This document shows positions 3,109-59,855 of a stretch of 64,000 nt of DNA, piece after piece. The stretch lies in the IMG/VR virus record IMGVR_UViG_3300021326_000217, positions 8,688-72,687 of that record; one strand, 5' to 3'. Positions within the stretch are counted from its first letter, which is position 1; each line of letters begins with the position of its first letter. Origin of the DNA: a virus (taxonomy: Duplodnaviria; Caudoviricetes). The notes beneath the pieces were generated by a model that did no database searches, was not told where the DNA came from, and saw nothing but the letters and a program-made list of their open reading frames with translations. A program made the position numbers and the translations under genes.

Positions 3109-4231
3109 AAAACACGCTGTCCTTTCCGCTTCCGCATCGCACAGGTGGATGAATTGCACTCCGTCCGCAAGACTTGAGCTTGAATTCGAGGACAGAGAAA
3201 CCGAAGCCGCCGCCGAAGGAACTGCCGCACACGCCCTTTGTGAGCATAAGCTGAAACGGGCTTTGAAGCAAAGGTCGAAAAAGCCTGTGTCGCAGTACGA
3301 CTGTGACGAGATGGACGAGTACACAGACGGGTATGTTGCTTTCGTTTTGGAGCAATATGCCGAGGCGCAGGAAACCTGTCCACATCCCACCATGCTTATT
3401 GAACAGCGGCTCGACTTTTCAAAGTATGTAGAGGATGGTTTCGGAACGGGCGATTGCCTCATCATCGCAGACCGCAAGCTCCATGTCATTGACTTTAAGT
3501 ACGGTCAGGGCGTTTTGGTGGAAGCTGAAAACAATCCGCAGATGATGCTTTATGCTCTCGGCGCACTTGATATGTACGATTGCCTCTACGATATTGACGA
3601 GGTTTCGATGACTATTTATCAGCCTCGCCGTGAGAACATCAGCACATGGACGATTGATGCAAAAGCACTCTATGATTGGGCAGAAAACACACTAAAACCG
3701 AAAGCCGAGCTTGCTTTCAAAGGTGAAGGCGATTACTGCAGTGGTGATTGGTGTACCTTCTGCAAGGCAAAGGTGAACTGCCGTGCGAGAGCCGAGGAAA
3801 AGCTGAAGCTCGCACAGTACGAATTCAAACTGCCGCCGCTACTCACCGATGATGAAATTGAGGAAATCCTGACAAAGCTCGATGACCTGACAAAATGGGC
3901 AAATGAGATAACCGCTTATGCGCAGGATGCCGCACTTAATCACGGAAAGCAGTGGCACGGCTTCAAAGTGGTCGAAGGTCGTTCCAACCGAAAGTATGCT
4001 GACGAGGAAGCCGTTGTCGAAGCGGCGCAAGCGGCAGGATACAAGGACATCTTCAAAACGAGCCTTATCACCATTACTGAAATGGAAAAGCTCATGGGCA
4101 AACAGAACTTTGCCGACATTCTCGGTGCGCTTATTATTAAGCCGCCTGGGAAACCGACACTTGTCCCTATCACAGACAAGCGTCCTGCAATAACAAAAGA
4201 AAAACCCGAAAACGAATTTGATGAAATTTAG
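3098..4231 (+). CDS. PD-(D/E)XK exonuclease (DUF2800 / Cas4-like phage exonuclease)
   Basis: HAVLSASASHRWMNC, GTAAHALCE, GFGTGDCLII, VIDFKYGQG and C-terminal CTFC...C; start at ATG 3098. Confidence 0.88.
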   Translation: MGNKKHAVLSASASHRWMNCTPSARLELEFEDRETEAAAEGTAAHALCEHKLKRALKQRSKKPVSQYDCDEMDEYTDGYVAFVLEQYAEAQETCPHPTMLIEQRLDFSKYVEDGFGTGDCLIIADRKLHVIDFKYGQGVLVEAENNPQMMLYALGALDMYDCLYDIDEVSMTIYQPRRENISTWTIDAKALYDWAENTLKPKAELAFKGEGDYCSGDWCTFCKAKVNCRARAEEKLKLAQYEFKLPPLLTDDEIEEILTKLDDLTKWANEITAYAQDAALNHGKQWHGFKVVEGRSNRKYADEEAVVEAAQAAGYKDIFKTSLITITEMEKLMGKQNFADILGALIIKPPGKPTLVPITDKRPAITKEKPENEFDEI

Positions 4232-4245
4232 GAGGATATTTAATC

Positions 4246-4791
4246 ATGGCAAATCAGAAAAATACAAAAGTTGTAACAGGTGTTGTAAGACTTTCTTACG
4301 CAAATGTATGGGAGCCGAAAGCCGTAAACGGCGGCGATGAAAAATACTCGGTATCCCTCATCATCCCGAAAACCGACAAAAAGACTATTGCAGACATCGA
4401 AAAAGCGATTGACCTCGCTATCGAAGAAGGCAAAGGCAAATTCGGTGGTAAAACCCCGAACAAGGCGGCTCTGAAACTTCCGCTCCGTGACGGTGACGTT
4501 GAGCGTGACGATGAAGCGTACAAGGACAGCTACTTTGTGAACGCAAACTCCAAAACCGCTCCGCAGATAGTTGACGGCAAGGTACAGAAAATCCTCGACC
4601 GCAACGAAGTGTACAGCGGATGTTATGCGAGGGTGTCTATTACATTTTACGCTTTCAATTCCAACGGCAATAAGGGTATTGCCTGTGGGCTTGGCAATAT
4701 TCAGAAGGTATCGGACGGTGAGCCTCTCGGCGGCAGAAGCAATGCAGAGGATGACTTCACCTCTTTGGAGGACGAGGACTTTTTGATGTGA
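4246..4791 (+). CDS. Phage single-stranded DNA-binding protein (DUF2815-like)
   Basis: VRLSYANVWEPK, KYSVSLIIPK, YSGCYARVSI, GIACGLGNIQK and an acidic C-terminus. Confidence 0.88.
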   Translation: MANQKNTKVVTGVVRLSYANVWEPKAVNGGDEKYSVSLIIPKTDKKTIADIEKAIDLAIEEGKGKFGGKTPNKAALKLPLRDGDVERDDEAYKDSYFVNANSKTAPQIVDGKVQKILDRNEVYSGCYARVSITFYAFNSNGNKGIACGLGNIQKVSDGEPLGGRSNAEDDFTSLEDEDFLM

Positions 4792-4852
4792 TGGATTTAA
4801 TTGCTGTGGCGGTGAGCTTTCTGCTTGCCGCCAACGGCAGAAAGGAAAAGCA

Positions 4853-6781
4853 ATGGACAATTTGAGTATTGATATAGAAACTTATTCGTCCGTAAACCTT
4901 CAAAAGTGCGGTGTATATAAATACGCAGAATCCGATGATTTCGAGATACTTCTATTCGGATATTCCATAGACGGCGGCGAGGTGCAGGTCATAGATTTAG
5001 CGCAGGGCGAAAAGCTCCCTGACGATATTGTTGCGGCTCTTACCGATGATTCCGTTACCAAGTGGGCATTCAATGCAATGTTTGAGCGTGTATGTCTGTC
5101 AAGGTATTTGAAAGATTACCTGAAGCCTGATGCGTGGCGATGCACTATGGTATGGTCGGCAACTCTCGGTCTGCCCCTCTCCCTCGAAGGTGTCGGTGCG
5201 GTTATCGGACTTGAAAAGCAGAAAATGAAGGAAGGCAAAGAACTCATCCGCTATTTCTGCACACCGAACAAGGTTAAAGACGGCGGCTTTACACGCCATA
5301 CCCCCAAAGACAACCCTGAACGGTGGGAGCTTTTTAAAGAATATAACAAGCGAGATGTCGAAACCGAGCTTGCTGTTAAACAGCGGCTTTCAAAATTCCC
5401 CGTTTCGGATACCGAATGGCAGAATTACAAACTTGACCAAGAGATAAACGACCGAGGCATCCTCCTTGATATGAAGCTCGTGCGATCAGCCATAAAATGC
5501 GATAACGAGTACAAGGAGGAAAACCTGAAAAACGCCCGTGAGCTTACAGGACTTGAAAACCCGAACTCTCCTGTACAGCTAAAAGCATGGCTTTTGGAAC
5601 AAGGCATCGTAGCCGACTCGCTTTCCAAAAAGGCTGTGGAGGAACTGCTCGAAAAAACGGACGGTGATATTTCCGAGGTTTTGAAGCTCCGAAAGCAAAT
5701 GGCGAAAAGCTCTGTTAAAAAATATACGGCTATGGAAAACGCCGTGTGCCGTGACAGCCGAGCAAGAGGACTTATACAGTTTTACGGTGCGAACAGAACG
5801 GGTCGGTACGCAGGGCGGCTCGTTCAGGTGCAAAATCTGCCCCAAAACCACCTGCCCGAACTCGAAGATGCCCGAAAGCTAATACGGGACGGCAACTATG
5901 AAACTGCCGAACTGTTATACGGCTATGCTCCGTTTATCCTTTCGGAACTCATACGCACGGCGTTTGTCCCGAAGGACGGATGCAAGTTTTATGTTGCGGA
6001 CTTTGCCGCTATCGAAGCGAGGGTCATCGCATGGCTTGCAGGAGAGCATTGGCGGCAGAGTGTATTTGCGGAGGGCAAAGACATCTATTGCGCATCGGCA
6101 TCGCAGATGTTTGGTGTCCCCGTTGAGAAAAACGGAGTAAACGGACACCTGCGCCAAAAAGGTAAAATCGCAGAACTCGCACTCGGCTATGGCGGCTCGG
6201 TCGGAGCATTAAAGGCTATGGGTGCGCTTGCTATGGGACTCTCGGAAGAAGAACTGAAACCGCTTGTCGATGCTTGGCGGCAATCGAACTCGAAAATTGT
6301 CCGCTTATGGTGGGACATTGACAGTGCCGTTACATCCTGCGTTAAGACGAAAGAGCGCAAAGAAACACACGGCATCGTATTCGAGTATCAAAGCGGCATC
6401 CTTTTCATCACCCTGCCATCAGGCAGAAGGCTCGCCTATGTGAAGCCGAGAATCGGTGAAAACAGATTCGGAGGTGAAAGTGTAACCTACGAAGGTGTCG
6501 GCGGCACTAAAAAATGGGAGCGTTTGGAGAGCTACGGCGCAAAGTTTGTAGAGAACATCGTTCAGGGTACGGCGAGGGACATTCTTGCCGAGGCTATGCT
6601 CCGCTTGGATAATGCAGGTTACAACATCGTGATGCACGTTCACGATGAAGCGGTTATTGAAGCACCCGATGGCACGAGCCTCGAAGATATATGTGACGTT
6701 ATGGGACAAACCCCGAAATGGGCTGACGGATTACTGCTCCGTGCGGACGGTTATGTCTGCGACTTTTACAGAAAGGACTGA
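4853..6781 (+). CDS. Phage family-A DNA polymerase with 3'-5' exonuclease domain
   Basis: SIDIETYS (Exo I), YNKRDVE (Exo III), ADFAAIEARV (motif A), RQKGKIAELALGYG (motif B), VMHVHDE (motif C). Confidence 0.95.
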   Translation: MDNLSIDIETYSSVNLQKCGVYKYAESDDFEILLFGYSIDGGEVQVIDLAQGEKLPDDIVAALTDDSVTKWAFNAMFERVCLSRYLKDYLKPDAWRCTMVWSATLGLPLSLEGVGAVIGLEKQKMKEGKELIRYFCTPNKVKDGGFTRHTPKDNPERWELFKEYNKRDVETELAVKQRLSKFPVSDTEWQNYKLDQEINDRGILLDMKLVRSAIKCDNEYKEENLKNARELTGLENPNSPVQLKAWLLEQGIVADSLSKKAVEELLEKTDGDISEVLKLRKQMAKSSVKKYTAMENAVCRDSRARGLIQFYGANRTGRYAGRLVQVQNLPQNHLPELEDARKLIRDGNYETAELLYGYAPFILSELIRTAFVPKDGCKFYVADFAAIEARVIAWLAGEHWRQSVFAEGKDIYCASASQMFGVPVEKNGVNGHLRQKGKIAELALGYGGSVGALKAMGALAMGLSEEELKPLVDAWRQSNSKIVRLWWDIDSAVTSCVKTKERKETHGIVFEYQSGILFITLPSGRRLAYVKPRIGENRFGGESVTYEGVGGTKKWERLESYGAKFVENIVQGTARDILAEAMLRLDNAGYNIVMHVHDEAVIEAPDGTSLEDICDVMGQTPKWADGLLLRADGYVCDFYRKD

Positions 6782-6785
6782 TTAA

Positions 6786-7433
6786 ATGTTTAGTGATAAT
6801 TTAAGAAAAGCAAGAGAACTGAAAGGTTTGACACAAACCGAACTGGCAGAGGAATTACTGGTTTCAAAAGGCACGGTGGAAATGTGGGAAAAGGGCAAAC
6901 GCTATCCCTCTTTGTATATCTTAAAATGCATTTCCGTGCTTTTGGAATGCAGTATAGACTGGCTTCTGCAAGACTCTTTATATGAGCGAGGTGAAAACGA
7001 TATGAGTGTTAATTTGTATAACAGCGAACATTATGTATGCCCAACAGAATATGAAGCCCTTTCTAACATCGAAAGAGATGAAAAAAAGTCAAAATATGTG
7101 TACCGACCGATAGTGTATATCTGCTCGCCGTATGCGGGTGACATAGATGCTAATGTGATGGATGCAAGACGTTATTCCCGATTTGCTGTGAACTGCGGCT
7201 GTCTGCCGATCACCCCACACCTTTTCTTTCCGCAGTTTATGGACGATGACGACCCGACTGACAGGAAGCTCGCATTTGATTTGAACTATATCCTTCTGAA
7301 CAAATGCTCGCAAGTATGGGTGTTTGGAGACGAAATCACAAACGGCATGAATACGGAAATTCAAAACGCCAAACGCAAAAGAATACAAATCAGGTACTTT
7401 AACGAAAAATGCGAGGAGGTTTTTAAGCTATGA
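6786..7433 (+). CDS. XRE HTH fused in frame to a DUF4406-like nucleotide-binding/deoxyribosyltransferase-like domain
   Basis: N-terminal HTH (LTQTELAEELLVSKGTVEMWEKG); C-terminal VYICSPYAGD...PITPHL...LLNKCSQVWVFG; internal SD GAGGTGA and ATG at 7002. Confidence 0.75.
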   Translation: MFSDNLRKARELKGLTQTELAEELLVSKGTVEMWEKGKRYPSLYILKCISVLLECSIDWLLQDSLYERGENDMSVNLYNSEHYVCPTEYEALSNIERDEKKSKYVYRPIVYICSPYAGDIDANVMDARRYSRFAVNCGCLPITPHLFFPQFMDDDDPTDRKLAFDLNYILLNKCSQVWVFGDEITNGMNTEIQNAKRKRIQIRYFNEKCEEVFKL

Positions 7434-10305: not shown

Positions 10306-11641
10306 CTATCAAACCTATGCAACGGCTTTTGTGGAACAACATCCCATCGCCGCCGTGTTCCTTGATATGGGACTTGGTAAGAGCGTAATCACCCTGACCG
10401 CCATATACGACCTTTGCTTTGATTATTATGAGGTGTCTAAAGTGCTTGTCATCGCTCCGCTTCGAGTAGCGAGAGATACATGGAAGGACGAAATCGAAAA
10501 ATGGGAACACCTGAACGGACTTTCATATTCGGTGGCAGTTGGAACGGAAGCTGAACGCAAAGCGGCACTTTCAAAAAAGGCTACGGTGTATATCATAAAC
10601 CGAGAGAACGTTCAGTGGCTTGTTGACAGCGGACTTCCATTCGATTATGACATGGTGGTGATTGACGAGCTTTCATCCTTCAAATCGCATCAGGCAAAAC
10701 GATTCAGAAGCCTTATGAAAGTAAGACCAACGGTAAAGCGCATGGTCGGACTTACGGGAACGCCATCGTCAAACGGGCTTATGGATTTATGGGCTGAATT
10801 CAAACTGCTTGATATGGGCAAACGCCTCGGACGGTTTATAACCCATTACCGTGACGAATTTTTCCTTCCCGACAAGCGAAACGCACAGGTGATATTTTCC
10901 TACAAGCCGAAAGACGGTGCGGAGGATGAAATCTATAAACGCATATCGGACATCACGATTTCCATGCGAAGCACCGACTACCTGGAGATGCCTGAATGCA
11001 TTATGAACACCGTGAAGGTCACGCTTTCCGAAAAGGAACGGGAGGTGTACGACACTTTCAAGCGTGAGCTTGTGGTGTCACTAAACGGGAACGAGGTCGA
11101 TGCAGGTAATGCGGCGGCTTTGTCGGGCAAGCTCTCCCAAATGGCAAACGGGGCTGTGTACGGTGAGGAAAAGGATGTCTTTCCCATCCACGACCGAAAG
11201 CTTGATGCTTTGGAGGACTTAATTGAAGCCGCCAACGGCAAACCTGTTCTTGTGGCGTATTGGTATAAGCACGACCTTGAACGAATAAAAAAGAGGTTTA
11301 CCGTCCGTGAAATAAAAACCTCAAAGGACATAGCCGATTGGAACAGCGGCAGTATCCCTGTTGCGGTTATCCATCCTGCATCGGCAGGTCACGGACTAAA
11401 CCTTCAGGCAGGTGGCTCGACCTTGATATGGTTTGGAATCACATGGAGCTTGGAGCTTTACCAACAAACCAACGGACGGTTATGGCGGCAGGGACAGAAA
11501 TCCGATACGGTCGTGATACACCATATTATAACAAATGGCACGATTGATGAGAAAATCATGAAAGCCTTAAACGATAAGGACAGAACGCAGACCGCATTGA
11601 TTGAGGCGGTCAAAGCAGAGATTGGAGGTAAATCAATATGA
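10286..11641 (+). CDS. SNF2-like helicase
   Basis: DMGLGKS, VIDELS, GLTGTP, AGHGLNLQ and QTNGRLWRQGQ motifs. Confidence 0.92.
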   Translation: MKYKPHDYQTYATAFVEQHPIAAVFLDMGLGKSVITLTAIYDLCFDYYEVSKVLVIAPLRVARDTWKDEIEKWEHLNGLSYSVAVGTEAERKAALSKKATVYIINRENVQWLVDSGLPFDYDMVVIDELSSFKSHQAKRFRSLMKVRPTVKRMVGLTGTPSSNGLMDLWAEFKLLDMGKRLGRFITHYRDEFFLPDKRNAQVIFSYKPKDGAEDEIYKRISDITISMRSTDYLEMPECIMNTVKVTLSEKEREVYDTFKRELVVSLNGNEVDAGNAAALSGKLSQMANGAVYGEEKDVFPIHDRKLDALEDLIEAANGKPVLVAYWYKHDLERIKKRFTVREIKTSKDIADWNSGSIPVAVIHPASAGHGLNLQAGGSTLIWFGITWSLELYQQTNGRLWRQGQKSDTVVIHHIITNGTIDEKIMKALNDKDRTQTALIEAVKAEIGGKSI

Positions 11642-12075
11642 CGAGTAAAGAATATTTATCACAGGCATACCAACTTGACAAACGCATAAACGCAAAAATC
11701 AGTCAAGTGGCTTCTTTGAATGAGCTTGCAACAAAGTGTACTTCAACAATTACAGGAATGCCTCATGCGCCGAGTAAAAGCACATCGACAATGGCTGACA
11801 CGATTACAAAAATCATTGATTTGGAACATGAAATCAATAGTGACATCGACAGGCTTGTCGACCTGAAGCGTGAAATGGTACGGGCGATTAAGGCTGTCGG
11901 GAATACCGAATACCAGACCATACTTGAACTGCGGTACTTATGTTTTGAATCGTGGGAACAGATCTCTATGGCATTGCATTTGAGTATTCAGCACACCTTC
12001 CGACTTCACTCCCGTGCCTTGAAGGAATTTAAAATTCCGCAAAAAAAAATAAAAGTGGAGAGTAAATGTGATTGA
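11638..12075 (+). CDS. ArpU/RinA-like late transcriptional activator (DUF1492-like)
   Basis: KEYLSQAY...ILELRYLCFESWEQISMAL...FRLHSRAL; lies just before the packaging genes. Confidence 0.8.
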   Translation: MTSKEYLSQAYQLDKRINAKISQVASLNELATKCTSTITGMPHAPSKSTSTMADTITKIIDLEHEINSDIDRLVDLKREMVRAIKAVGNTEYQTILELRYLCFESWEQISMALHLSIQHTFRLHSRALKEFKIPQKKIKVESKCD

Positions 12076-12157
12076 ATGAGAGTATGGCATTATGGTATAA
12101 TGTAAAATGTCAAGGAATGCAGGATAAGGAACACTAAATCCATAAATCTCCTTTTTT

Positions 12158-12191
12158 GAAAGCCCGTGCAGGAAAAACTGCATGGGCTTTC
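12158..12191 (+). terminator. Strong hairpin downstream of the putative late promoter
   Basis: GAAAGCCCGTGCAG-GAAAAA-CTGCATGGGCTTTC; an extended -10 TGGTATAAT lies upstream near 12094-12102. Confidence 0.5.
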
Positions 12192-12313
12192 CTGTCCTTG
12201 TACGATGGTGTCTGACATTGTGACATCATCCGCAAAAATTAAAAATCATGTACGATGATGTGAGATATGGTCACATCATTTTTTATTTTCACACAGAAAG
12301 GAGGGATAACCCC

Positions 12314-13368: not shown

Positions 13369-14157
13369 ATGTTTGAAAAAGTAAACCCTGCTCACCCCGA
13401 TAAGGTGGCAGACAGAATTGCAGGTGCGCTTGTCGACCTTGCATACGAAAAAGAGGAAAACCCGAAAATCGCCGTGGAAGTCTTGATAGGACACGGCGTT
13501 TGTCATGTCATTGCAGAATCGTCCGTGGAACTTGATGCGGTCGCAGTTTGTAAGGCTGTTCATAGAATTGCAGGAAATGACTTAATGGTGGATTTCAGAT
13601 GCGTAAAACAGGACAGTCACCTTGCCGCAAACCAAGCGGACGGTTTTCGGTGCGGCGATAACGGCATATTTAAAGGTATGCCCATTACCGAGGAGCAGAA
13701 AGCTCTGACCGAAATTGCAAAAAGTGTGTATAACACATACCCGTGTGACGGCAAGTACATTTTAGATGAGGCTCGCCTCATTATTTGCCAGAGCAATGCA
13801 AGCACCGAGGAACTGAAAAGCACATATCCCCATGCCGAAATAAATCCGCTCGGCTTTTGGACTGGCGGCACGGATGTGGACACAGGTGCGACCAACCGAA
13901 AGCTCGGAAGCGATATGGCAGACAGCGTGACAGGCGGCGGTCTGCACGGCAAAGACCTCTCGAAAGCCGATGTCAGCGTAAACATCTATGCATGGATGAA
14001 GGCACAGGAAACACACAAACCTGTGGAGCTTTGCTGTGCCATTGGCGATGAGACCGTTGACGGAAAGGCGTATTCCGAAATCGTGGAAATAGCAAGAGAT
14101 TATATCCGCTCCGTTGGCGGCTTTGAGAAGTTTGCGGAATGGGGGCTTGTCAGATGA
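13369..14157 (+). CDS. metK: Shortened phage S-adenosylmethionine synthetase homologue (262 aa)
   Basis: EKVNPAHPDKVADRI, GDNGIF, GGTDVDTGATNRK and GGGLHGKDLSKAD, matching MetK GHPDK / DxGxTGRK / GGGAFSGKD motifs. Confidence 0.85.
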   Translation: MFEKVNPAHPDKVADRIAGALVDLAYEKEENPKIAVEVLIGHGVCHVIAESSVELDAVAVCKAVHRIAGNDLMVDFRCVKQDSHLAANQADGFRCGDNGIFKGMPITEEQKALTEIAKSVYNTYPCDGKYILDEARLIICQSNASTEELKSTYPHAEINPLGFWTGGTDVDTGATNRKLGSDMADSVTGGGLHGKDLSKADVSVNIYAWMKAQETHKPVELCCAIGDETVDGKAYSEIVEIARDYIRSVGGFEKFAEWGLVR

Positions 14158-15407
14158 AAACAACAACCGAAATGGAGCTTGTTTCTATTGAGAAGCTCGT
14201 TCCTTATGTGAATAACGCCCGTACCCATTCACCTGCACAGATTACCAAACTGCGCTCGTCTCTGCGTGAATTCGGATTTATCAACCCCGTTATAATCGAC
14301 AGGGATTTTAATGTTATAGCAGGTCACGGCAGAATTATGGCGGCGAAAGAAGAAGGCATTACGGAAGTGCCGTGTGTTTTTGCCGACTACTTAACCGAGG
14401 CACAGAAAAAAGCATATATCATTGCAGACAACCGCATGGCTATGGATGCAGGTTGGGACGAAGAACTCCTGCGAGTAGAAATTGAAGCTCTGCAGGGCAT
14501 GGATTTTGACCCGTCTCTGACAGGCTTTGACGAGAAGGAACTCGCCACACTCTTTAATAATGGCATAGAAGCAAAAGACGATGACTTTGATGTGTCGGCA
14601 GAACTTGAAAAGCCGCCGCTGACACGAAACGGTGATGTTTGGATTTTAGGAAAGCACCGTCTCGTTTGCGGTGATAGTACAAAGGCAGAAACCTTTGAAG
14701 CTCTGATGCAAGGCGAAAAGGCAAACCTTGTTATAACTGACCCTCCGTATAATGTCAATTATGAAGGCTCGGCAGGAAAAATCAAAAATGATAATATGGC
14801 TGACGATAAATTTTATAACTTCCTGCTTGATGCCTTTAAGAATACGGAAGCGGCGATGGCTGACGATGCGAGTATTTATGTTTTCCATGCCGACACCGAG
14901 GGCTTGAATTTCAGGAAGGCTTTTCAAGACAGCGGTTTTTATCTTTCAGGTACTTGTATATGGAAGAAGCAATCGCTTGTTCTCGGTCGCTCCCCGTATC
15001 AATGGCAACATGAGCCTATCCTTTTCGGTTGGAAAAAGAAAGGCAAGCACCAGTGGTACACGGGGCGAAAAGAATCGACCATTTGGGAATTTGACAAACC
15101 CAAGAAAAATGCCGACCATCCGACCATGAAGCCGATTCCGCTCCTTGCATACCCGATTACAAATTCAAGTATGTCCAATTGCATCGTGCTTGACCCGTTT
15201 GGTGGAAGCGGCTCGACCCTTATCGCCTGTCAGCAGACGGACAGAATTTGCCGTACCATTGAATTGGACGAGAAATTCTGCGATGTCATCGTGAAACGGT
15301 ATATTGAACAGGTCGGCTCGGATGATGAAGTCAAGGTTATCAGAGATAATCAGACTATACCATACAAAGATATACACGACAGCAATGAGGAAATCCCTCT
15401 GTTTTAA
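14154..15407 (+). CDS. ParB-N-domain DNA methyltransferase (N6-A/N4-C, beta class)
   Basis: N-terminal PYVNNAR...IAGHGR (ParB-like); TDPPYN catalytic motif; HPTMKP; VLDPFGGSGST SAM-binding motif. Confidence 0.92.
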   Translation: MKTTTEMELVSIEKLVPYVNNARTHSPAQITKLRSSLREFGFINPVIIDRDFNVIAGHGRIMAAKEEGITEVPCVFADYLTEAQKKAYIIADNRMAMDAGWDEELLRVEIEALQGMDFDPSLTGFDEKELATLFNNGIEAKDDDFDVSAELEKPPLTRNGDVWILGKHRLVCGDSTKAETFEALMQGEKANLVITDPPYNVNYEGSAGKIKNDNMADDKFYNFLLDAFKNTEAAMADDASIYVFHADTEGLNFRKAFQDSGFYLSGTCIWKKQSLVLGRSPYQWQHEPILFGWKKKGKHQWYTGRKESTIWEFDKPKKNADHPTMKPIPLLAYPITNSSMSNCIVLDPFGGSGSTLIACQQTDRICRTIELDEKFCDVIVKRYIEQVGSDDEVKVIRDNQTIPYKDIHDSNEEIPLF

Positions 15408-15539
15408 AGAGGACTGAAATGCTGTAATATAGACAGTTTCAAAGGCACATATTTGTGAAGTATTTAGTGTCAAAACTCTTGATAAATAAGGCGTTCAGAG
15501 TTAATATGTGGCTAACAAAAAAGAAGGAGGTCATGTAAA

Positions 15540-16232
15540 ATGACAACGACCAATGCAAACATAAAGTTTAATGTCACAGGCGCAAAGCGCAAAGAACTCG
15601 TAAGTCTTATTGCAAACTTCACAGGGTGCGAAGCAAAGTACAAAGGCGCACCGAGCTTTGCCTACGAGGTGGACTACTTCAGCATTGACAAAAACGGAAC
15701 GCTTATATTTGATGACAGAGCCGACAGCGAGGTTATTGAAAGACTGCTCGAAATGCTCTACGACAACAGCTTCGTTGCAGAGGAAAGCGAAGCTGAAACC
15801 GACCAGCCCCAAGTAGAAGCCACAGGGCTTACGGTCGAGATACCGCTTGATAAGGTGAATGTTGGAAACCTTACAAACCTGCTTGAATCAAAAGGCGAGC
15901 TTATAAAGGAAGCACTCGGAATAAGCGATATACGCATAGAGCTTTTGGAAGACCGAGTTACATTCCCGTGGTTTGGTGACATTGAGCCGAGCGATGCAAA
16001 GGCTTATACAGAATTCATCGCCGCTCTATGCGCACACTCGAAAAAGCTCACGAGAATCAACGCTGTGGAAACAAAAGCAGAAAACAAAAAATACGCATTC
16101 CGCTGTTTCCTCCTGCGCCTCGGCTTTATCGGGACGGAATATAAGGAAACGAGAAAAATCCTGCTCCGCAACCTCGAAGGAAGCTCCGCTTTCAAAAGCG
16201 GTAAGAAAAAAGAGGTGCAGAACAATGGCTGA
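15540..16232 (+). CDS. Hypothetical phage protein (often labelled virulence-related) with the C-terminal KYAFRCFLLRLGFIG motif
   Basis: ORF track; first gene of cassette 1; SD GGAGG. Confidence 0.75.
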   Translation: MTTTNANIKFNVTGAKRKELVSLIANFTGCEAKYKGAPSFAYEVDYFSIDKNGTLIFDDRADSEVIERLLEMLYDNSFVAEESEAETDQPQVEATGLTVEIPLDKVNVGNLTNLLESKGELIKEALGISDIRIELLEDRVTFPWFGDIEPSDAKAYTEFIAALCAHSKKLTRINAVETKAENKKYAFRCFLLRLGFIGTEYKETRKILLRNLEGSSAFKSGKKKEVQNNG

Positions 16233-16443
16233 TAAGTTTTTCACAACTACCAAATGTGACCGTTGCGGAGGCTCGCTTGAAAGCGGCAGAATAATGTCCA
16301 TGTTCAATGAGGATTGCATTTGTATGGACTGTAGTAAGAAGGAGCGAGAGCTTCCCGAATTCAAGCAAGCCGCCGAAGCCGAGCTCGCCGAAATCAAGCG
16401 TGGAAACTACAATTTCAAGGGCATCGGATACCCCGAAAAATAG
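16225..16443 (+). CDS. Small Zn-binding protein (72 aa; CDRC...CICMDC)
   Basis: C-terminal part of ORF 15973..16443; SD GAGGTG before ATG 16225. Confidence 0.75.
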   Translation: MADKFFTTTKCDRCGGSLESGRIMSMFNEDCICMDCSKKERELPEFKQAAEAELAEIKRGNYNFKGIGYPEK

Positions 16444-16577
16444 CTGTAATATACACAATTTTAGCCTTGAAAGATTGTGTAGTATATAGGTCAGAATTGA
16501 CTTGATATATACCCTTTTCAGAGGTAATATGTGACTACAAAAAGAACAGAAAACACTTTTGAAAAGGAGTAAAAACC

Positions 16578-17519
16578 ATGAACGAAAAAACAAGAAACTT
16601 TATCGAGGAAATGAAAAAGCAGACCATCGGGATTGAAATTGAGATGGCAAACATTACAAGAGAAAAAGCCTGCAGAACGGTCGCAAAATACTACGGCACG
16701 GAAAGCACAGTAAAACATGACGGCGGCGGCTATGACACTTGGAGTTGCAAGGACACCAAAGGCAGGACTTGGAAGATAACGAGGGACGTTAGCATACAGG
16801 CACGGACGGACAGCGAAAAAGCAGAGCTTGGAACACCCATCCTTCACTACGATGACATTGAGGACTTGCAGGAAATCGCAAGGCAGTTACGCCACGCAGG
16901 TGCGGTTTCCAACCCACAGCACGGATGCGGTGTACATTGTCACATCGGTGCAGACGGACACACAGCAGGAACGCTCCGAAACCTCGCAAACATCATGGCA
17001 AGCCACGAAAGCCTTTTGACAAACGCATTAAGCCTTGACAGAAGCCGCATAAACAGCTACTGCAGACAGGTCGACACAAACTTCCTTACAAGGCTGAACA
17101 GAAGGAAGCCAAGGAGCATGATGGCACTTGCGGACATTTGGTACGCTGACAACAATGAGTACCGAGGCGCACATTACAACCACACACGCTACAGAATGCT
17201 AAACCTCCACGCAACCTTTACAAAAGGAACGGTTGAATTCCGACTTTTCCAATTCGACAACCCCACGGAGGAACGCAGAGGCGGCATACACGCAGGACAG
17301 CTTAAAAGCTACATTCAGCTTTGCCTTGCACTTTCCCAAATGGCAAAAACACAGAAAACAGCAAGCCCGAAGCCACAGCAAACCGAAAACCCGAAATACG
17401 CAATGCGAACTTGGCTCCTCCGCCTCGGATTTATCGGTGACGAATTCAAAACAGCAAGAGACCTCTTTACAAAGCGACTTGACGGGGACACAGCCTTCAG
17501 AAACGGCAGACCTGCATAA
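16578..17519 (+). CDS. Putative amidoligase (COOH-NH2 ligase-like)
   Basis: TIGIEIEM, WKITRDVSI, ELGTPIL, CGVHCHIG, RYRMLNLH and GTVEFRLF motifs. Confidence 0.85.
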   Translation: MNEKTRNFIEEMKKQTIGIEIEMANITREKACRTVAKYYGTESTVKHDGGGYDTWSCKDTKGRTWKITRDVSIQARTDSEKAELGTPILHYDDIEDLQEIARQLRHAGAVSNPQHGCGVHCHIGADGHTAGTLRNLANIMASHESLLTNALSLDRSRINSYCRQVDTNFLTRLNRRKPRSMMALADIWYADNNEYRGAHYNHTRYRMLNLHATFTKGTVEFRLFQFDNPTEERRGGIHAGQLKSYIQLCLALSQMAKTQKTASPKPQQTENPKYAMRTWLLRLGFIGDEFKTARDLFTKRLDGDTAFRNGRPA

Positions 17520-17592
17520 AGCAGAAACCCCGACACCCGACCGCTACGGCGGTCTTAAGGTGGTAGAAGACGATTTGAAAGGAGATTTTTTT

Positions 17593-18060
17593 ATGGCAAA
17601 AAGAAAGTACATCGCATACGGGAGCAACCTCAATGTTCAGCAAATGAAATGGCGATGCCCACACGCAAAAATTATGGGAACGGGTGAACTTAAGGATTGG
17701 AGGCTTCTTTTCAAAGGAAGTAAAACGGGAGCATACCTTACCATAGAAAAGTGCGAAGGCTATAGCGTACCCTTTGCGGTATGGGAGGTCAACGCAACGG
17801 ACGAGGCGGCACTTGACCGCTACGAGGGATTTCCCACCTTCTATTACAAGCAGGAGCTTCCCTTCGAGTACACGGGTATAAGGACAGGCAGAACACACAA
17901 AACCAAAGGCTTCGTTTACATTATGCACGAGGACAGACCTATCGGAATTCCCTCAAAGCATTATGTTGAAGTATGCGCCACAGGTTATATGACCTTCGGT
18001 TTTAACTACGAGCGCATTCTTGAATCACTCCGCTACAGCGAGGAGGTGACGAAGGAATGA
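17593..18060 (+). CDS. Gamma-glutamylcyclotransferase-like (AIG2/GGCT) protein
   Basis: YIAYGSNL...ALDRYEGFP..Y; SD AAGGAG before ATG 17593. Confidence 0.88.
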   Translation: MAKRKYIAYGSNLNVQQMKWRCPHAKIMGTGELKDWRLLFKGSKTGAYLTIEKCEGYSVPFAVWEVNATDEAALDRYEGFPTFYYKQELPFEYTGIRTGRTHKTKGFVYIMHEDRPIGIPSKHYVEVCATGYMTFGFNYERILESLRYSEEVTKE

Positions 18061-18257
18061 AGAACGGAACACATCCCGAAACCGTATGCCCGAAATGCGG
18101 CATGGTTTATTATGAAGCACCTGCACTTTCAAGAACCGACAACAAAACACTCATCTGTCCCGATTGCGGCATCCGTGAAAGTTTGGCGGCATTCGGTCTT
18201 GGAGCGGAAGAGCAGGAACATATCATAAGAGCCATTCATGGCAGACACAAAGCGTAA
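18057..18257 (+). CDS. Small Zn-ribbon protein (CPKC...CPDC)
   Basis: ORF track; ATGA overlap with GGCT. Confidence 0.7.
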   Translation: MKNGTHPETVCPKCGMVYYEAPALSRTDNKTLICPDCGIRESLAAFGLGAEEQEHIIRAIHGRHKA

Positions 18258-18269
18258 GGAGGAGCGACA

Positions 18270-18572
18270 ATGACAAAAAATGAGTTATACGACCAAATCA
18301 CAGAACAGTATTATGAATTCATCGCAGGGCTGAAAAAGCAAACGGCTTCAGAGCTTATTAAAAACGCTGAGCTTATTGCAACGACCAAACAGTTATATAA
18401 GTTTATCAAACTTAACAAGCCGTTCAGCGATGATGACACTGAATACCTTTCCCGAATCAAACGACCGCTTATAGTACTTTCAGAAGTATACAACGAAATA
18501 AGCGGCATTGACTGTGAAGTGTTTGACCGCTTGATGTTTGAGGGCAAAGGTCATGGGCTGTTTGAAGAGTGA
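18270..18572 (+). CDS. Hypothetical protein
   Basis: ORF track; SD GGAGGAG. Confidence 0.7.
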   Translation: MTKNELYDQITEQYYEFIAGLKKQTASELIKNAELIATTKQLYKFIKLNKPFSDDDTEYLSRIKRPLIVLSEVYNEISGIDCEVFDRLMFEGKGHGLFEE

Positions 18573-18755
18573 AAACACCATTTCGGAACGAGCCGAAAGG
18601 CTCTGTTCCTCGTTATAAATCATACGTAATATACACAATTAACGCCCTCTATATTTGTGTAGTATATATCGCTGAAATGACTTGATATATATGCGATTCA
18701 GAGGTAATATGTGACTACCGAAAGGGAAAACAAACAAAAATTGGAGGAAACGAAA

Positions 18756-19022
18756 ATGACAGAATTCACAACCATTGAAAAACTTGACCTTGCGATGAGT
18801 CCATCCTACGATGCGCTTGTACGCTATAAGCACCACGTTTGCTTGGCATCACTTAATTACAAGGGTGAATATGAAGCCGAGATTTACGAGTTTGTTGACG
18901 AGCCTGAAACGGACGGCTTTTCAGAAATTGAATGCCGCCTCGCCATGACAGAAAAGGCAGACATCACATTCCATGACAGCGGCTCGGCAATCAAATGGTG
19001 CTTTGACAAGCTCGACAAATAA
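18756..19022 (+). CDS. Hypothetical cassette protein (88 aa, acidic)
   Basis: SD GGAGG before ATG 18756; follows repeat copy 3. Confidence 0.75.
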   Translation: MTEFTTIEKLDLAMSPSYDALVRYKHHVCLASLNYKGEYEAEIYEFVDEPETDGFSEIECRLAMTEKADITFHDSGSAIKWCFDKLDK

Positions 19023-19188
19023 GCCGCAACCAACGCCCTGCAAAGAGCCGCAAAAAGGCTCTTTTGCTCGTCATAATATACACAATAAAACCTCCGAATG
19101 TTTGTGTAATATATAGTGTCGAAATGACTTGATATAAGTGCGTTTTAGAGGTAATATGTACTCAACAAAAAACAAGGAGGGCAACACA

Positions 19189-19377
19189 ATGCTTAAACTT
19201 TACAAATTCTACGAACTCATTAACAGGAACGCACTGGTGACCTTGACCGAGGATACCTTGACAAAAACCTACTTTGAAGGAAGCGTTAAGGACATTCCCG
19301 ACAGTTTTGACGATTGGAACGTCACAGACTTTTGTGTTTCGGACGGCGGCGATTTTCTTTTCCACATTGCGAAATAA
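19189..19377 (+). CDS. Hypothetical cassette protein (62 aa)
   Basis: SD AAGGAGG before ATG 19189; follows repeat copy 4. Confidence 0.72.
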   Translation: MLKLYKFYELINRNALVTLTEDTLTKTYFEGSVKDIPDSFDDWNVTDFCVSDGGDFLFHIAK

Positions 19378-19390
19378 GGAGGACACGGAA

Positions 19391-19753
19391 ATGATGAGGA
19401 TTGAAGCATTTGAACAGGCAATCGAAAACAAGGTAAAGAGCTTAAAAGCGGTCGGAATCAACCACACACTGTTTTGGGCATACCGCACGAGCATCGAAGC
19501 GGAAAACGACCTGATTGATTTTGATGAGTGTATTTGGGAGGATGACATTGAGGAAATCGCAAACTTCCTGAAAGCAAACGGCATCATTGAATTCACGATT
19601 TCGAGCAACTTCTCAAGCCTGATACCTACCCTTGCCGAATTTGAAAAACACGGTTTCAAGATGGCAGGGCTTACAGAGGTCAACGCAAGGTACAAGGAAA
19701 TCTGTTCGGACAAACGGGCAAAGAAAAAAGCAATCCGAATGCTTAACTACTAA
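19391..19753 (+). CDS. Hypothetical cassette protein (DUF7698-like), paralogue of 19927..20280
   Basis: GINHTLFWAY...EFTISSNFSSLIPTLAEFEKHG; SD GGAGG. Confidence 0.75.
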   Translation: MMRIEAFEQAIENKVKSLKAVGINHTLFWAYRTSIEAENDLIDFDECIWEDDIEEIANFLKANGIIEFTISSNFSSLIPTLAEFEKHGFKMAGLTEVNARYKEICSDKRAKKKAIRMLNY

Positions 19754-19926
19754 AATCCCGTACCGAAGGAGCCGCAGGAGGCTCTTTTGGTCGTACAAAT
19801 ATACACAATGAAACCTCCGCATATTTGTGTAATATATGTCTCGGAAATGACTTGATATAAGTGCGATTCAGAGGTAATATGTACACAACAAAAGGGCAAA
19901 GCCCGAACAAAAAGGAGGAACCAGAA

Positions 19927-20280
19927 ATGGTAAAATTTTATTTAAACAAGGAGCTTTTTTCAGCGGACTACAGAGAAACGGGAATCAACCGCACAATGTT
20001 TTGGGCGGTGATGCACAGAAAGAAAACGGGCAACAAACTCCTTGATTTAAGCGAGGCAATCAACGACAACGAAATTCCAGAGCTTGTCGACACGCTCCTG
20101 CGTATGGAGGAAAAGCAATTCACGATTTCAAGCGGATTCAGCGGCTTGGTAAAAACCCTGAAGGAATTTGAAAAATACGGAGCCTACATTGTAAGCCTTA
20201 CGGAAGTAAACACACCTCACAAGGATTACAAAACAGGCGAGCGAGAGCGAATTCCTGCATTGCTTTTGGAACTCCGATAA
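19927..20280 (+). CDS. Hypothetical cassette protein (DUF7698-like), paralogue of 19391..19753
   Basis: GINRTMFWAV...QFTISSGFSGLVKTLKEFEKYG; SD GGAGG; follows repeat copy 5. Confidence 0.75.
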   Translation: MVKFYLNKELFSADYRETGINRTMFWAVMHRKKTGNKLLDLSEAINDNEIPELVDTLLRMEEKQFTISSGFSGLVKTLKEFEKYGAYIVSLTEVNTPHKDYKTGERERIPALLLELR

Positions 20281-20437
20281 AAGCCTTAAAAAAGCAAAGA
20301 ACCCAAGCGGTTCTTTTGCTCGTACAAGCGCATAATATACACAATGTGCTTGCTGAATATTTGTGTAGAAATGGTATTGATAAAATCCTAAAAATACGGT
20401 AATATGGGTACAACAAAAACGAAGGGAGTTACAAACA

Positions 20438-20653
20438 ATGTACGAAATTATTGTAAACAAGGATTCAATCAGAAGGCTTCAAAAGGACGGTGAATACCGC
20501 TTCCCAGGACTTACAAGAGCGCAGTCAAAACAGGCGGCTACCACCCTTGCCGAAGCAACCATGAGCGAGGACAGAAAGCACGGTATTCAAAGCAATTACG
20601 GCATTGCAAGGGATGCGTTTGGTTATTACTTTGCGGCGCAAATCAACGCCTAA
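20438..20653 (+). CDS. Hypothetical cassette protein (71 aa)
   Basis: ORF track; SD GGGAG; follows repeat copy 6. Confidence 0.7.
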   Translation: MYEIIVNKDSIRRLQKDGEYRFPGLTRAQSKQAATTLAEATMSEDRKHGIQSNYGIARDAFGYYFAAQINA

Positions 20654-20897
20654 AAACGGCAAACACGCCCCTTACAAAGCGAACTGAACGAGCCGAGAGG
20701 CTCTGTTCCTCTCTACTGCAAGACCGAACGGTCTATTTTTTATGATTTTCCGTGCCTGTAAAATGCTGTAATATACACAATTTCCTTTCCGAATATTTGT
20801 GTAGTATATGTCTCGAAAATGACTTGATATTTAGCGATTTTAGAGGTAATATGTACACAACAAAAGGGCAAAGCCCAGATTAAAGGAGGACACAAGA

Positions 20898-21104
20898 ATG
20901 TGTGATTTAACAAAGATTTCCGAGAGGACAAACAAACTTTACAACGAGCTTGCAAGGAAGGTTTATGGAACGGACGATGAATACCGCTATATGCTTGGGG
21001 TAAACGGAATTAACGAGGTCTGCTTCACAGACTGGCGCACACACGCCGAAATCAAAGGCAACAGGGCTATTCAGAAAGCAATCAAGGAAATCCTCGCAAA
21101 ATAA
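20898..21104 (+). CDS. Hypothetical cassette protein (68 aa)
   Basis: ORF track; SD GGAGG; follows repeat copy 7. Confidence 0.7.
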   Translation: MCDLTKISERTNKLYNELARKVYGTDDEYRYMLGVNGINEVCFTDWRTHAEIKGNRAIQKAIKEILAK

Positions 21105-21301
21105 AAAAACCCGAACACAACGGAGCGAGCCGAGAGGCTCTGTTCCTCTCTACAACAAGACCAATGGGTCTTTTTTTGTTGCTGTAATATACACAAATTA
21201 AGCCCTGTATATTTGTGTAGTATATGTCTCTGAAATGACTTGCTATTTATAGGTTTTAGAGGTAATATGTACACTACAAAAAAAGAAAGGGGCAAAAAGC
21301 C

Positions 21302-21481
21302 ATGACAAAGAAAGAACTTCAAAAACTCGTAAAAATCGTAAATGAGAACGTTGTAACAATGGAAAAGAGAGCAGACCTTGAAAGGCATTACAGCGATGAA
21401 TTGGACTTCTTCGATATTGCGGTTTGGGAGCTTAAAACGGTGCTTATCGCCGCATACGAGCTTGGCAAGAAAAGCAAATAA
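21302..21481 (+). CDS. Small cassette protein (59 aa, DUF6900-like)
   Basis: Own translation MTKKELQKLVKIVNENVVTMEKRADLERHYSDELDFFDIAVWELKTVLIAAYELGKKSK; follows repeat copy 8; not in the ORF track. Confidence 0.75.
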   Translation: MTKKELQKLVKIVNENVVTMEKRADLERHYSDELDFFDIAVWELKTVLIAAYELGKKSK

Positions 21482-21589
21482 AAAAAAACAACGACAACCG
21501 AAAACAACGGAACGAGCCGAAAGGCTCTGTTCCTCTCTATAGATCAGACCGAAAGGTCTATTTTTTATGCGTGGAAATGGGGTGATATT

Positions 21590-23191
21590 ATACGCAAGCT
21601 AAAAAATTACAAGCCTTCACGGTTTCTCGCTGAAGGCTCGGTGTATGATAAAACGGCGGCTGATTACGCCGTAGGCTTTATTGAATGCCTGTGCCATACC
21701 AAAGGCACATGGGCAGGAAAGCCGTTTGAACTGATTGATTGGCAGGAGCAAATCATACGGGATATTTTCGGAACGCTGAAACCTAACGGCTATCGTCAAT
21801 TCAACACGGCATATATTGAAATACCAAAGAAAATGGGAAAGAGCGAGCTTGCGGCGGCAGTCGCTCTTTTATTATGCTGTGGTGACGGCGAAGAACGAGC
21901 CGAGGTTTACGGATGCGCCGCCGACCGACAGCAAGCATCTATCGTTTTTGAGGTGGCGGCGGACATGGTGAAAATGTGTCCTGCACTTGCAAAGCGTGTC
22001 AAAATCCTCGCCTCGCAAAAGCGGCTCGTTTTCCTTCCGACCAACAGTTTCTATCAGGTGCTGTCTGCTGAAGCCTACTCAAAGCATGGCTTTAACATAC
22101 ACGGTGTTGTATTTGACGAGCTTCACACGCAACCGAACAGAAAGCTCTTTGATGTTATGACAAAGGGGTCAGGCGATGCGAGGATGCAACCCTTGTATTT
22201 CCTCATCACGACCGCAGGAACTGACACCCATTCCATCTGCTACGAAACACACCAAAAGGCAGTCGATATTCTTGAAGGCAGGAAAATCGACCCGACCTTT
22301 TATCCCGTGATTTACGGAGCAGACGAAAACGATGACTGGACAGACCCGAAGGTGTGGAAAAAGGCAAACCCCTCCCTCGGTATAACGGTTGGTATTGATA
22401 AGGTCGTGGCGGCTTGCGAATCGGCAAAACAAAACCCTGCGGAAGAAAACTCATTCAGACAGCTTCGATTAAACCAGTGGGTAAAGCAAGCTGTCAGGTG
22501 GATGCCGATGGAAAAATGGGACAAATGCTCGTTTGCAACCGATGAGGATGAACTGTACGGGCGTGTTTGCTACGGCGGACTTGACCTTTCCTCCACAACG
22601 GATATAACGGCATTCGTACTTGTTTTTCCACCCGTGGACGAAAGCGATAAATACATTATCCTTCCGTACTTTTGGATACCCGAAGATAACATTGACCTTC
22701 GAGTACGGCGTGACCATGTGCCGTATGACCTTTGGGAACGACAAGGGTATCTGCAAACTACCGAGGGAAATGTCGTGCATTACGGGTATATTGAGAAGTT
22801 TATCGAATCGCTTGGTGAGAAATTCAATATCCGTGAAATTGCCTTTGACCGTTGGGGTGCTGTGCAGATGGTGCAAAACCTCGAAGGTATGGGATTTACG
22901 GTCGTGCCATTCGGTCAGGGCTTTAAGGATATGTCACCACCGACCAAAGAGCTTATGAAGCTCGTGCTTGAGGAAAAGCTCGCACACGGCGGTCACCCTG
23001 TCCTTAGATGGATGATGGATAACATATATGTCCGCACCGACCCTGCAGGAAACATAAAACCCGATAAGGAAAAATCGACAGAAAAGATTGACGGCGCAGT
23101 GGCAACCGTAATGGCTCTCGACCGTGCCATTCGGTGCGGAAACGACACAACAGAGAGTGTATATGATGAGCGAGGTCTGTTATTCATTTAA
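21590..23191 (+). CDS. terL: Terminase large subunit
   Basis: Walker A IPKKMGKSE, VVFDELH, GGLDLSSTTD, KIDGAVA; start uncertain (ORF track GTG 21641; the in-frame IRKLKNYKPSRF extension suggests about 21590). Confidence 0.95.
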   Translation: MRKLKNYKPSRFLAEGSVYDKTAADYAVGFIECLCHTKGTWAGKPFELIDWQEQIIRDIFGTLKPNGYRQFNTAYIEIPKKMGKSELAAAVALLLCCGDGEERAEVYGCAADRQQASIVFEVAADMVKMCPALAKRVKILASQKRLVFLPTNSFYQVLSAEAYSKHGFNIHGVVFDELHTQPNRKLFDVMTKGSGDARMQPLYFLITTAGTDTHSICYETHQKAVDILEGRKIDPTFYPVIYGADENDDWTDPKVWKKANPSLGITVGIDKVVAACESAKQNPAEENSFRQLRLNQWVKQAVRWMPMEKWDKCSFATDEDELYGRVCYGGLDLSSTTDITAFVLVFPPVDESDKYIILPYFWIPEDNIDLRVRRDHVPYDLWERQGYLQTTEGNVVHYGYIEKFIESLGEKFNIREIAFDRWGAVQMVQNLEGMGFTVVPFGQGFKDMSPPTKELMKLVLEEKLAHGGHPVLRWMMDNIYVRTDPAGNIKPDKEKSTEKIDGAVATVMALDRAIRCGNDTTESVYDERGLLFI

Positions 23192-59644: not shown

Positions 59645-59795
59645 CATTAAGCAAAAAATAATTGCATACAGACAGGCAATGTCTCTTGCAAATGCAATGC
59701 TTGAAAGAGGCATAATCACTGACGAAGAGTACGCTAAAATTGATAAAATAATGACCAATAAGTACGGCGTATTTTCGTCTACTATATTCCGCTAA
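59637..59795 (+). CDS. Small SHOCT-like protein (52 aa)
   Basis: Own translation ...MLERGIITDEEYAKI...; SD GAAAGGAG; not in the ORF track. Confidence 0.7.
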   Translation: MTDIKQKIIAYRQAMSLANAMLERGIITDEEYAKIDKIMTNKYGVFSSTIFR

Positions 59796-59800
59796 AACGC

Positions 59801-59829
59801 TTGATATAATGCGGCTTTAGAGGTAATAT
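59801..59829 (+). promoter_or_regulatory. sigmaA promoter with the same core as the cassette repeats
   Basis: CTTGATATAATGCGGCTTTAGAGGTAATATGTG: TTGATA-N17-TAATAT. Confidence 0.75.
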
Positions 59830-59855
59830 GTGAGACGAAAACGGAGGTGATCATC

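Follow-up and report, generated by a model that had tools for sequence, protein, structure and literature searches.

A repeated promoter-like module with a helically phased dyad heads eight accessory gene cassettes in a prophage of the Ca. Heliusvirales type

Autonomous promoter-gene-terminator units situated between core late genes, the morons of the Hendrix/Juhala concept, occur in lambdoid and other temperate phages. Here we analyze a related arrangement in a window of 64,000 nucleotides (positions 8,688 to 72,687 of IMGVR_UViG_3300021326_000217, a 72.7-kb IMG/VR provirus record), in which all eight copies of a repeat, R, lie between a methyltransferase gene and the terminase gene TerL, a stretch that forms the accessory region of the prophage. 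A second counterpart is provided by the promoter-early stem-loops (PeSLs) of T4-type phages (Arbiol et al. 2010, PMC2839356; Comeau et al. 2014, PMC4122927). As in PeSLs, repeated promoter and stem-loop motifs precede small ORFans within a hyperplastic region flanked by core genes, and the junctions of indels and replacements between relatives fall in the motifs; four of six PeSL features are present here at the sequence and comparative level, and the phage type differs. The array is likely a hyperplastic accessory region of eight R-headed transcription units diversified by homologous recombination between R copies.

R is a unit of about 110 bp whose eight copies, all on the plus strand, are distributed across positions 15420 to 21301. 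Its parts, in order, are a dyad (TACACAA-N15/16-TTGTGTA), a linker of about 19 bp, CTTGATAT, a 17-bp spacer whose 3' half is TTYAGAG, the hexamer TAATAT, a leader of 25 to 45 nt, a Shine-Dalgarno sequence (SD) and a start codon, with the SD and start codon within about 25 to 50 nt of each copy. A profile built from the eight copies and run by nhmmer recovers each of them, with E values from 3e-13 to 4e-27:

15420..15539, plus strand: R1, with a degenerate dyad, TTGATA-N17-TAATAT, leader and SD (nhmmer 6e-20)
16442..16577, plus strand: R2 (nhmmer 8e-24)
18625..18755, plus strand: R3 (nhmmer 6e-27)
19069..19188, plus strand: R4 (nhmmer 1e-24)
19794..19926, plus strand: R5 (nhmmer 1e-26)
20329..20437, plus strand: R6, with the dyad kept and the promoter one helical turn closer (nhmmer 3e-13)
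20764..20897, plus strand: R7 (nhmmer 4e-27)
21180..21301, plus strand: R8 (nhmmer 2e-25)

The same repeat families were recovered by a direct-repeat finder. TTG(A/C)TA-N17-TAATATG is matched without mismatch in 8 of 8 copies, and both the eight positions given in the original prediction and the succession of TTG(A/C)TA-N17-TAATAT, leader and SD that it ascribed to every copy are borne out. With up to two mismatches allowed, this pattern occurs 16 times in the window versus 4.35 expected, a count reached in 0 of 100 shuffles, and the left arm of the dyad has 10 matches versus 2.4 expected. R6 retains its dyad and TTGATA-N17-TAATAT, the latter lying about 10 bp nearer to the dyad. The window as a whole has no Rfam match at gathering thresholds, the array has none at an E value of ≤1, and a plasmid collection contains no match to R.

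Outside the window, the profile detects R in 218 fetched loci with one to five copies each and in one distant relative with eight; loci of relatives anchored on TerL or on the pattern carry zero to five. In the TerL-anchored relatives, R is always upstream of TerL and on the TerL strand. The hosts named for R loci (Lachnospiraceae, Oscillospiraceae, Ruminococcaceae, Christensenellales, Acutalibacter, Anaerovibrio, Selenomonas and Streptococcus) place R in phages of Clostridia, Negativicutes and Streptococcus. The profile search and comparison of relatives that had been suggested as a check on the array find R throughout the family, with cassettes that vary in number and content. In the distant relative (L287, positions 3785 to 7012; TerL 59% identical), six of the eight R copies run one way and two are divergent.

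Conservation within R is confined to a few blocks. Among 84 distinct copies from outside the window, both half-sites of the dyad, the -35 block, the TTtAGAG spacer block, AATAT and a leader motif are constrained and the remainder varies, giving a core promoter consensus of CTkGmTAT-N-(TTtAGAG)-nAATAT, which is of the sigma-A type. The gap between the dyad and the -35 block is 8 to 10 bp in 24 of 103 distinct copies, 18 to 19 bp in 66 and 28 to 30 bp in 13, with no other values, and the internal gap of the dyad is 15 or 16 in 92 of them. The three spacing classes are one helical turn apart, with the dyad centered near -60.5, -70.5 or -80.5 of the predicted promoter. Such quantized spacing is what a regulator obliged to face RNA polymerase would require, and it implies a shared, if so far only predicted, regulator. 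The R copies look like a common promoter and operator, making coregulation of the units, as first proposed, a reasonable inference.

The genes carried by the eight cassettes are as follows:

15540..16232, plus strand: g230, a divergent amidoligase-like protein with no Pfam match (phrog_2443, 2.2e-58), the near-universal first accessory gene in relatives
16225..16443, plus strand: g72, a 72-aa zinc-ribbon protein matching the C-terminal part of phrog_27033 (1.2e-31)
16578..17519, plus strand: Amidoligase_2 (PF12224, 1.6e-53)
17593..18060, plus strand: GGACT, a gamma-glutamyl cyclotransferase-like protein (PF06094; phrog_2520, 2.5e-49)
18057..18257, plus strand: zinc-ribbon protein of 66 aa (phrog_2945, 9.8e-21)
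18270..18572, plus strand: 100-aa protein with a weak DUF3848 match, under the Pfam cutoff
18756..19022, plus strand: Nmad4-domain (nucleotide-modification-associated) protein (PF18756, 3.7e-20)
19189..19377, plus strand: g62, 62 aa, no family, with homologs in relatives
19391..19753, plus strand: DUF7698 protein a (PF24753, 4.7e-46)
19927..20280, plus strand: DUF7698 protein b (PF24753, 1.8e-29)
20438..20653, plus strand: g71, 71 aa, no family
20898..21104, plus strand: g68, 68 aa, no family, with homologs in two relatives (L055 and L056)
21302..21481, plus strand: DUF6900 protein (PF21841, 3.9e-12)

Gene content between the repeats had been described as largely unrelated, which needs correction: cassettes 1 and 2 are paralogous, each encoding an amidoligase-like protein and a zinc ribbon (a diverged pair in cassette 1), and cassettes 4 and 5 both contain DUF7698. 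The family matched by g72, phrog_27033, is a GGACT-zinc-ribbon fusion family.

Relatives share a backbone of the methyltransferase gene, R with g230, R with the amidoligase, GGACT and zinc-ribbon genes, R with small genes, and TerL. They differ in which modules are present, in the genes next to TerL, in gene order and in the placement of R. TerL is 88 to 94% identical among relatives, and array genes are 40 to 70% identical or missing. The Nmad4 gene precedes DUF7698 in the window and follows it in three relatives (L001, L046 and L055), the order of g68 also varies, and an R copy separates the amidoligase and GGACT genes in four relatives (L161, L122, L185 and L171) and not in the window. The invariant order and number of genes that would have spoken against turnover are thus not what relatives show.

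Breakpoints between relatives concentrate in R. Of 158 ends of homology blocks with ≥88% identity, 28% lie inside R, versus 8% for random positions (3.5-fold). One clean case is the pair L006 and L082: both flanks are 94 to 95% identical, and the difference between the two loci is a single 459-bp cassette whose one gene specifies a protein of 106 aa. Their flanking high-scoring segment pairs overlap by 84 bp, and the alignment puts the crossover in the shared leader, with the lone R of L006 tracking the first copy of L082 up to the leader and the second copy thereafter. The same signature is found between L122 and L180 (2.4 kb) and between L122 and L135; overlaps of the flanking blocks at these clean indels are 61 to 84 bp. 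With number, content and in part order differing among relatives and crossovers placed inside R, the proposal that the repeats are sites of cassette gain, loss and shuffling is supported. Separately, L073 differs from L093 and L062 by a 1,214-bp insertion precisely at an R unit, the contigs being otherwise 97 to 100% identical.

Hairpins fold at seven of the eight cassette junctions (-14 to -26 kcal/mol, z of -2 to -4.7), in agreement with the related hairpin modules reported to close cassettes 2 to 8, and there is none after cassette 1 (z of -0.1). They are of two related types: GAGCC/GGCUC stems followed by UUUUG, which close cassettes 3 to 5 as single hairpins (-14 to -22 kcal/mol), and a longer hairpin with a GNRA loop, hp1, which closes cassette 2 alone and without a U tract and closes cassettes 6 to 8 together with a 5-bp hairpin and six or seven U residues:

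18584..18609, plus strand: hp1 (GNRA loop) without a U tract (-17.3 kcal/mol, z of -4.1)
19040..19068, plus strand: single hairpin and UUUUG, terminator-like (-14.3 kcal/mol)
19759..19793, plus strand: single hairpin and UUUUGG (-21.9 kcal/mol, z of -4.7)
20293..20322, plus strand: single hairpin and UUUUG (-15.4 kcal/mol, z of -3.8)
20684..20746, plus strand: hp1, 5-bp hairpin and U tract (folding)
21121..21179, plus strand: hp1, 5-bp hairpin and U tract (folding)
21508..21571, plus strand: hp1, 5-bp hairpin and U tract, abutting the TerL ribosome-binding site and kept in relatives (folding, covariation)

Over 10 pairs in 31 sequences, compensatory changes occur in 30 cells of the hp1 alignment versus 13.8 in shuffles, with 0 of 500 shuffles as high. 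The hp1 hairpin is kept up by compensatory changes.

The array ends at TerL (21590..23191, plus strand; assigned from Pfam, the alignment of relatives and translation). In an alignment of 73 relatives, the TerL reading frame opens some 50 nt ahead of the listed GTG, and the aligned start is TTG, ATC, ATA or GTG after an SD of the GGAGGTGA type; in the window, it is probably the ATA at 21590, after the SD GGGGTGA. A "half-R" considered upstream of TerL is resolved by the alignment as this SD and noncanonical start. The recurrence of noncanonical starts suggests that the family as a whole keeps the terminase start weak by design. In most relatives, only 10 to 20 nt separate hp1 and its terminator from the TerL SD. 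That leaves no space for a promoter serving TerL, which has to be reached by read-through from upstream. At this position, hp1 may be an attenuator, a processing site or a read-through element for the packaging genes.

In the explanation that we favor, R has three parts: a dyad that would be bound by a dimeric regulator, a sigma-A-type core promoter, and a conserved leader ending in an SD. The closing hairpins and weak terminators would insulate most units in part, and TerL would be reached by read-through of the last hairpin-terminator, with transcription from R8 or from farther upstream probably feeding the packaging genes. Exchange between the repeated copies of R and of the closing hairpin by homologous recombination, whether inside one genome or between coinfecting relatives, could delete, duplicate or swap the genes between them, and the diversity of cassettes across the family would be the product of such exchange. 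The observations behind this explanation are the anatomy of the array, its conservation, the helical-phase rule and the crossover signatures in relatives; promoter activity, regulator binding and the timing of expression are predicted from the motifs.

Several points weigh against this explanation. Plain consensus scoring rates the R promoters as ordinary (9 of 12 matches, with 19 such sites versus 16.5 expected), and the promoter activity of R and terminator activity of the hairpins are read from sequence. The regulator of the dyad is postulated from its sites, and the nearby gene for DUF1492, a known type of phage activator, does not track R, being present in 22 of 26 loci with R and in 7 of 8 without. 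The 103 copies behind the three spacing classes are related and do not amount to 103 independent events. The baseline for the enrichment of breakpoints is random positions, not other intergenic regions, and the crossover signatures come from relatives, the loci compared including no near-identical relative of the window array. Within the window, exact matches between R copies are just 9 to 35 nt, and exchange within the array would therefore be inefficient. Seven of the eight window copies are nearest to another window copy, by a narrow margin, a weak hint of possible local duplication or homogenization.

Set beside PeSLs, the array has a sigma-70/sigma-A-like promoter in each repeated intergenic motif (8 of 8 at the sequence level), a stable stem-loop, here a predicted terminator, for upstream transcription (7 of 8 by folding), a hyperplastic ORFan region between core genes, and junctions between relatives that fall in the motifs, as in the breakpoint enrichment and the three pairs described above. 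PeSL phages, however, are lytic T4-type myoviruses of Gram-negative hosts that use early promoters, whereas the present element is a temperate Firmicutes siphophage with an HK97 fold. The PeSL stem-loop lies within or beside the promoter, whereas the hairpin of the array stands apart as its own module upstream of the dyad, and R adds both a conserved dyad in helical phase with the promoter and a conserved leader. The array thus appears to be a PeSL-like system with a phased operator in addition, in a lineage of temperate Firmicutes phages. It would extend to such phages an idea that comes from lytic T4-like phages, namely that regulatory repeats anchor recombination. The original prediction could name no described system with this repeat, and literature searches likewise yield no account of the repeat itself, but the kind of system is known from PeSLs and morons.

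The cargo, too, has precedents. The amidoligase/GGCT set is known accessory cargo of gut prophages (PMC11318856), and a phage neighborhood of amidoligase, AIG2-GGCT and zinc-ribbon genes was described by Iyer et al. 2009 (cited in PMC11318856). Cassette 2 is that trio and cassette 1 a diverged paralogous pair; the published description deals with the genes only, not with a shared promoter-operator or an array.

Judged from its gene content, the host element is a temperate siphophage of Clostridia, a prophage of the Ca. Heliusvirales type and not an integrative and conjugative element (ICE). Upstream of the array, the window encodes a DUF2800 nuclease, an Enc34-type SSB, a family A DNA polymerase, a VapE-type primase, an SNF2 helicase and a DUF1492/sigma70_r4-like regulator; after the regulator gene come HNH, TerS, a MetK-like protein and the methyltransferase that forms the left border of the variable region:

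14139..15407, plus strand: ParB_N and N6_N4 DNA methyltransferase (Pfam PF01555, 2.3e-27; PF02195), kept upstream of the array in relatives

On the 3' side of the array are TerL, portal, ClpP protease and HK97-type capsid genes, followed later by genes for a 1,623-aa tail fiber, an amidase and a large serine recombinase. An ICE or leading-region reading is ruled out by the terminase, portal, protease and capsid genes, and the setting is the packaging region of a Heliusvirales-type prophage, not an early region. The window TerL is 86 to 92% identical to those of PV0364xx "NatCom" records classified as Ca. Heliusvirales and 88% identical to those of streptococcal Javan prophages. Heliusvirales phages are present in most human guts (PMC11283538); the Heliusvirales paper mentions neither promoters nor amidoligase nor a variable region.

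R-type promoters also occur outside the array:

59756..59830, plus strand: ninth, partial R (promoter and leader, degenerate dyad), upstream of tandem large serine recombinase genes

This copy heads a recombinase pair (59756 to 62707) in a second, lower-GC element at 54 to 64 kb, and the same combination of R core and tandem serine recombinases, with degenerate dyads, is found on at least 11 other, unrelated genome contigs. In the Streptococcus pyogenes phage phi-m46.1 (L198, FM864213), a dyad-less R core with leader occurs twice, after the gene in the regulator position and after methylases. By its occurrence at recombinase genes and in phi-m46.1, the predicted core is a portable module. At positions 470 to 650 of phi-m46.1, just after ORF23, three TGACCTA direct repeats lie about 70 to 120 bp upstream of a dyad-less R-type promoter, a layout that resembles Ltr-type late promoters.

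The alternative of a plain moron array would make the R promoters constitutive sigma-A promoters of a resident prophage, serving lysogenic conversion or superinfection exclusion, with the dyad serving as a site for a repressor or a roadblock, or surviving as a relic. Promoter-gene-terminator units set between core genes fit the definition of a moron, in which a noncore gene within a phage operon is flanked by a promoter and terminator of its own, both of them predicted here from sequence. The -35 and -10 elements are predicted to suffice without an activator, copies lacking the dyad persist in phi-m46.1 and ahead of recombinase genes, and a terminator right before TerL would shield the late genes from transcription in the prophage state. 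Quantized spacing and conserved half-sites are nevertheless unexpected of a relic or a simple roadblock, and the suggested screen of cassette ORFs against defense systems placed none in a known family (PADLOC, 0 families for 10 array proteins at an E value of ≤0.01). Morons are mostly single and mutually unrelated, whereas these eight units have in common a single homologous regulatory module, itself conserved throughout a whole phage order. We consider a plain moron array possible, if on balance unlikely.

A second alternative takes R as the late promoter of the family, activated by an Ltr-type protein: the DUF1492 product (11638 to 12075), encoded where the replication module ends, immediately ahead of HNH-TerS, would bind the dyad, the cassettes would be late genes, and the last R would drive TerL. 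DUF1492 (LtrB) proteins bind a repeat-containing region upstream and activate late promoters (PMC3753634), the dyad of R has an activator-like geometry, and TerL lies downstream of R8 with no promoter of its own. In phi-m46.1, moreover, the R-type core that follows the regulator-position gene heads a MetK-HNH-TerS block and has the TGACCTA repeats upstream. The site after the Ltr gene in the window, however, is a different promoter-like sequence without dyad half-sites, and ORF23 of phi-m46.1 has no significant similarity to the window regulator. The Ltr gene is present about as often in relatives with R as in those without, four loci with R and the same dyad have no detectable homolog, and dyad-less R promoters precede serine recombinase genes, which are not late. 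Described Ltr-type sites (RinA, ArpU and LtrB/DUF1492; PMC3753634) are single, lie just before terS and contain direct repeats, whereas R is multicopy, is 2 to 8 kb downstream of terS and has a dyad instead, and co-occurrence with the Ltr gene does not discriminate. A late-promoter role for R is, in our view, quite doubtful. A CI/Cro operator was rejected as the role of the dyad, there being no other dyad in the whole 72.7-kb record. The half-sites also resemble a split NrdR box, and small zinc-finger late activators of the P2 Ogr type act on dyads upstream of promoters, but R is present in relatives without zinc-ribbon genes.

Small, fast-turnover ORFans at variable loci are typical of counter-defense genes, and the cassettes, together with the adjoining MetK-like protein and orphan ParB-methyltransferase, might form an island that counters restriction or other immunity. 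The position of the methyltransferase and SAM-synthetase-like genes beside the array and the Nmad4 protein within it argue for such a role. Against it, the Pfam and PHROG names of the cassette proteins include no characterized counter-defense protein, although no dedicated anti-defense library was searched, and the proteins are not strongly acidic like DNA mimics (pI 4.4 to 9.4). The fold of DUF7698 is uninformative: the model of protein a (pLDDT 92.6) has a best Foldseek E value of 0.015 and a best VIA Z of 5.1, a weak Alba/GNAT-like alpha/beta resemblance from which no function is drawn, and by sequence the Atlas returns only its own family and a PDB search yields no significant match. A counter-defense island is thus rather unlikely.

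It is highly improbable that the dyads act as attC-like sites for a recombinase such as the window's serine recombinases: an imperfect inverted repeat with a variable center does stand at each cassette boundary, and R-type promoters are tied to serine recombinase pairs in many genomes, but integrons combine IntI, attI and a single Pc with promoterless attC cassettes, whereas here every cassette comes with a predicted promoter, an integron integrase is lacking, the only recombinases are of the serine type and lie 29 to 40 kb away (50434, 59847 and 61130), the recombinase-linked R copies have degenerate dyads, and the mapped crossover is in the leader and not the dyad, with block overlaps of 61 to 84 bp as in homologous exchange. 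"Integron-like" is accordingly a loose analogy.

A broader version of the favored explanation would treat R with its phased dyad, along with the covarying hp1, as a dedicated plug-in platform for expression that is shared across Heliusvirales, one of the most prevalent phage lineages of the human gut. One activator, of phage or host, would turn on all cassettes together, read-through into TerL would be controlled by hp1, the core promoter would have been captured by another class of mobile element to drive its serine recombinases, and the cargo would be fast-evolving genes for host interaction or counter-defense. We offer this version tentatively and with more doubt than conviction. R in any case marks where accessory genes are plugged in and swapped, and so offers a handle for finding the variable cargo of the lineage in metagenomes. 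Antibiotic-resistance cargo is carried by its streptococcal members phi-m46.1 and phi1207.3. It would also define a regulon whose regulator could be fished out with a 40-bp probe.

Two features near the array are of separate note. The 262-aa MetK-like protein encoded between TerS and the ParB-methyltransferase (13369 to 14157) resembles SAM synthetase over the N-terminal domain only; no function is assigned to its PHROG, and the protein is kept in many relatives. Immediately after the DUF1492 gene, positions 12072 to 12300 contain a near-consensus TTGAAT-N18-TATAAT with a TG extension (12072 to 12101) and two hairpins, followed by HNH, and this site may be a late promoter, a cos region or both.

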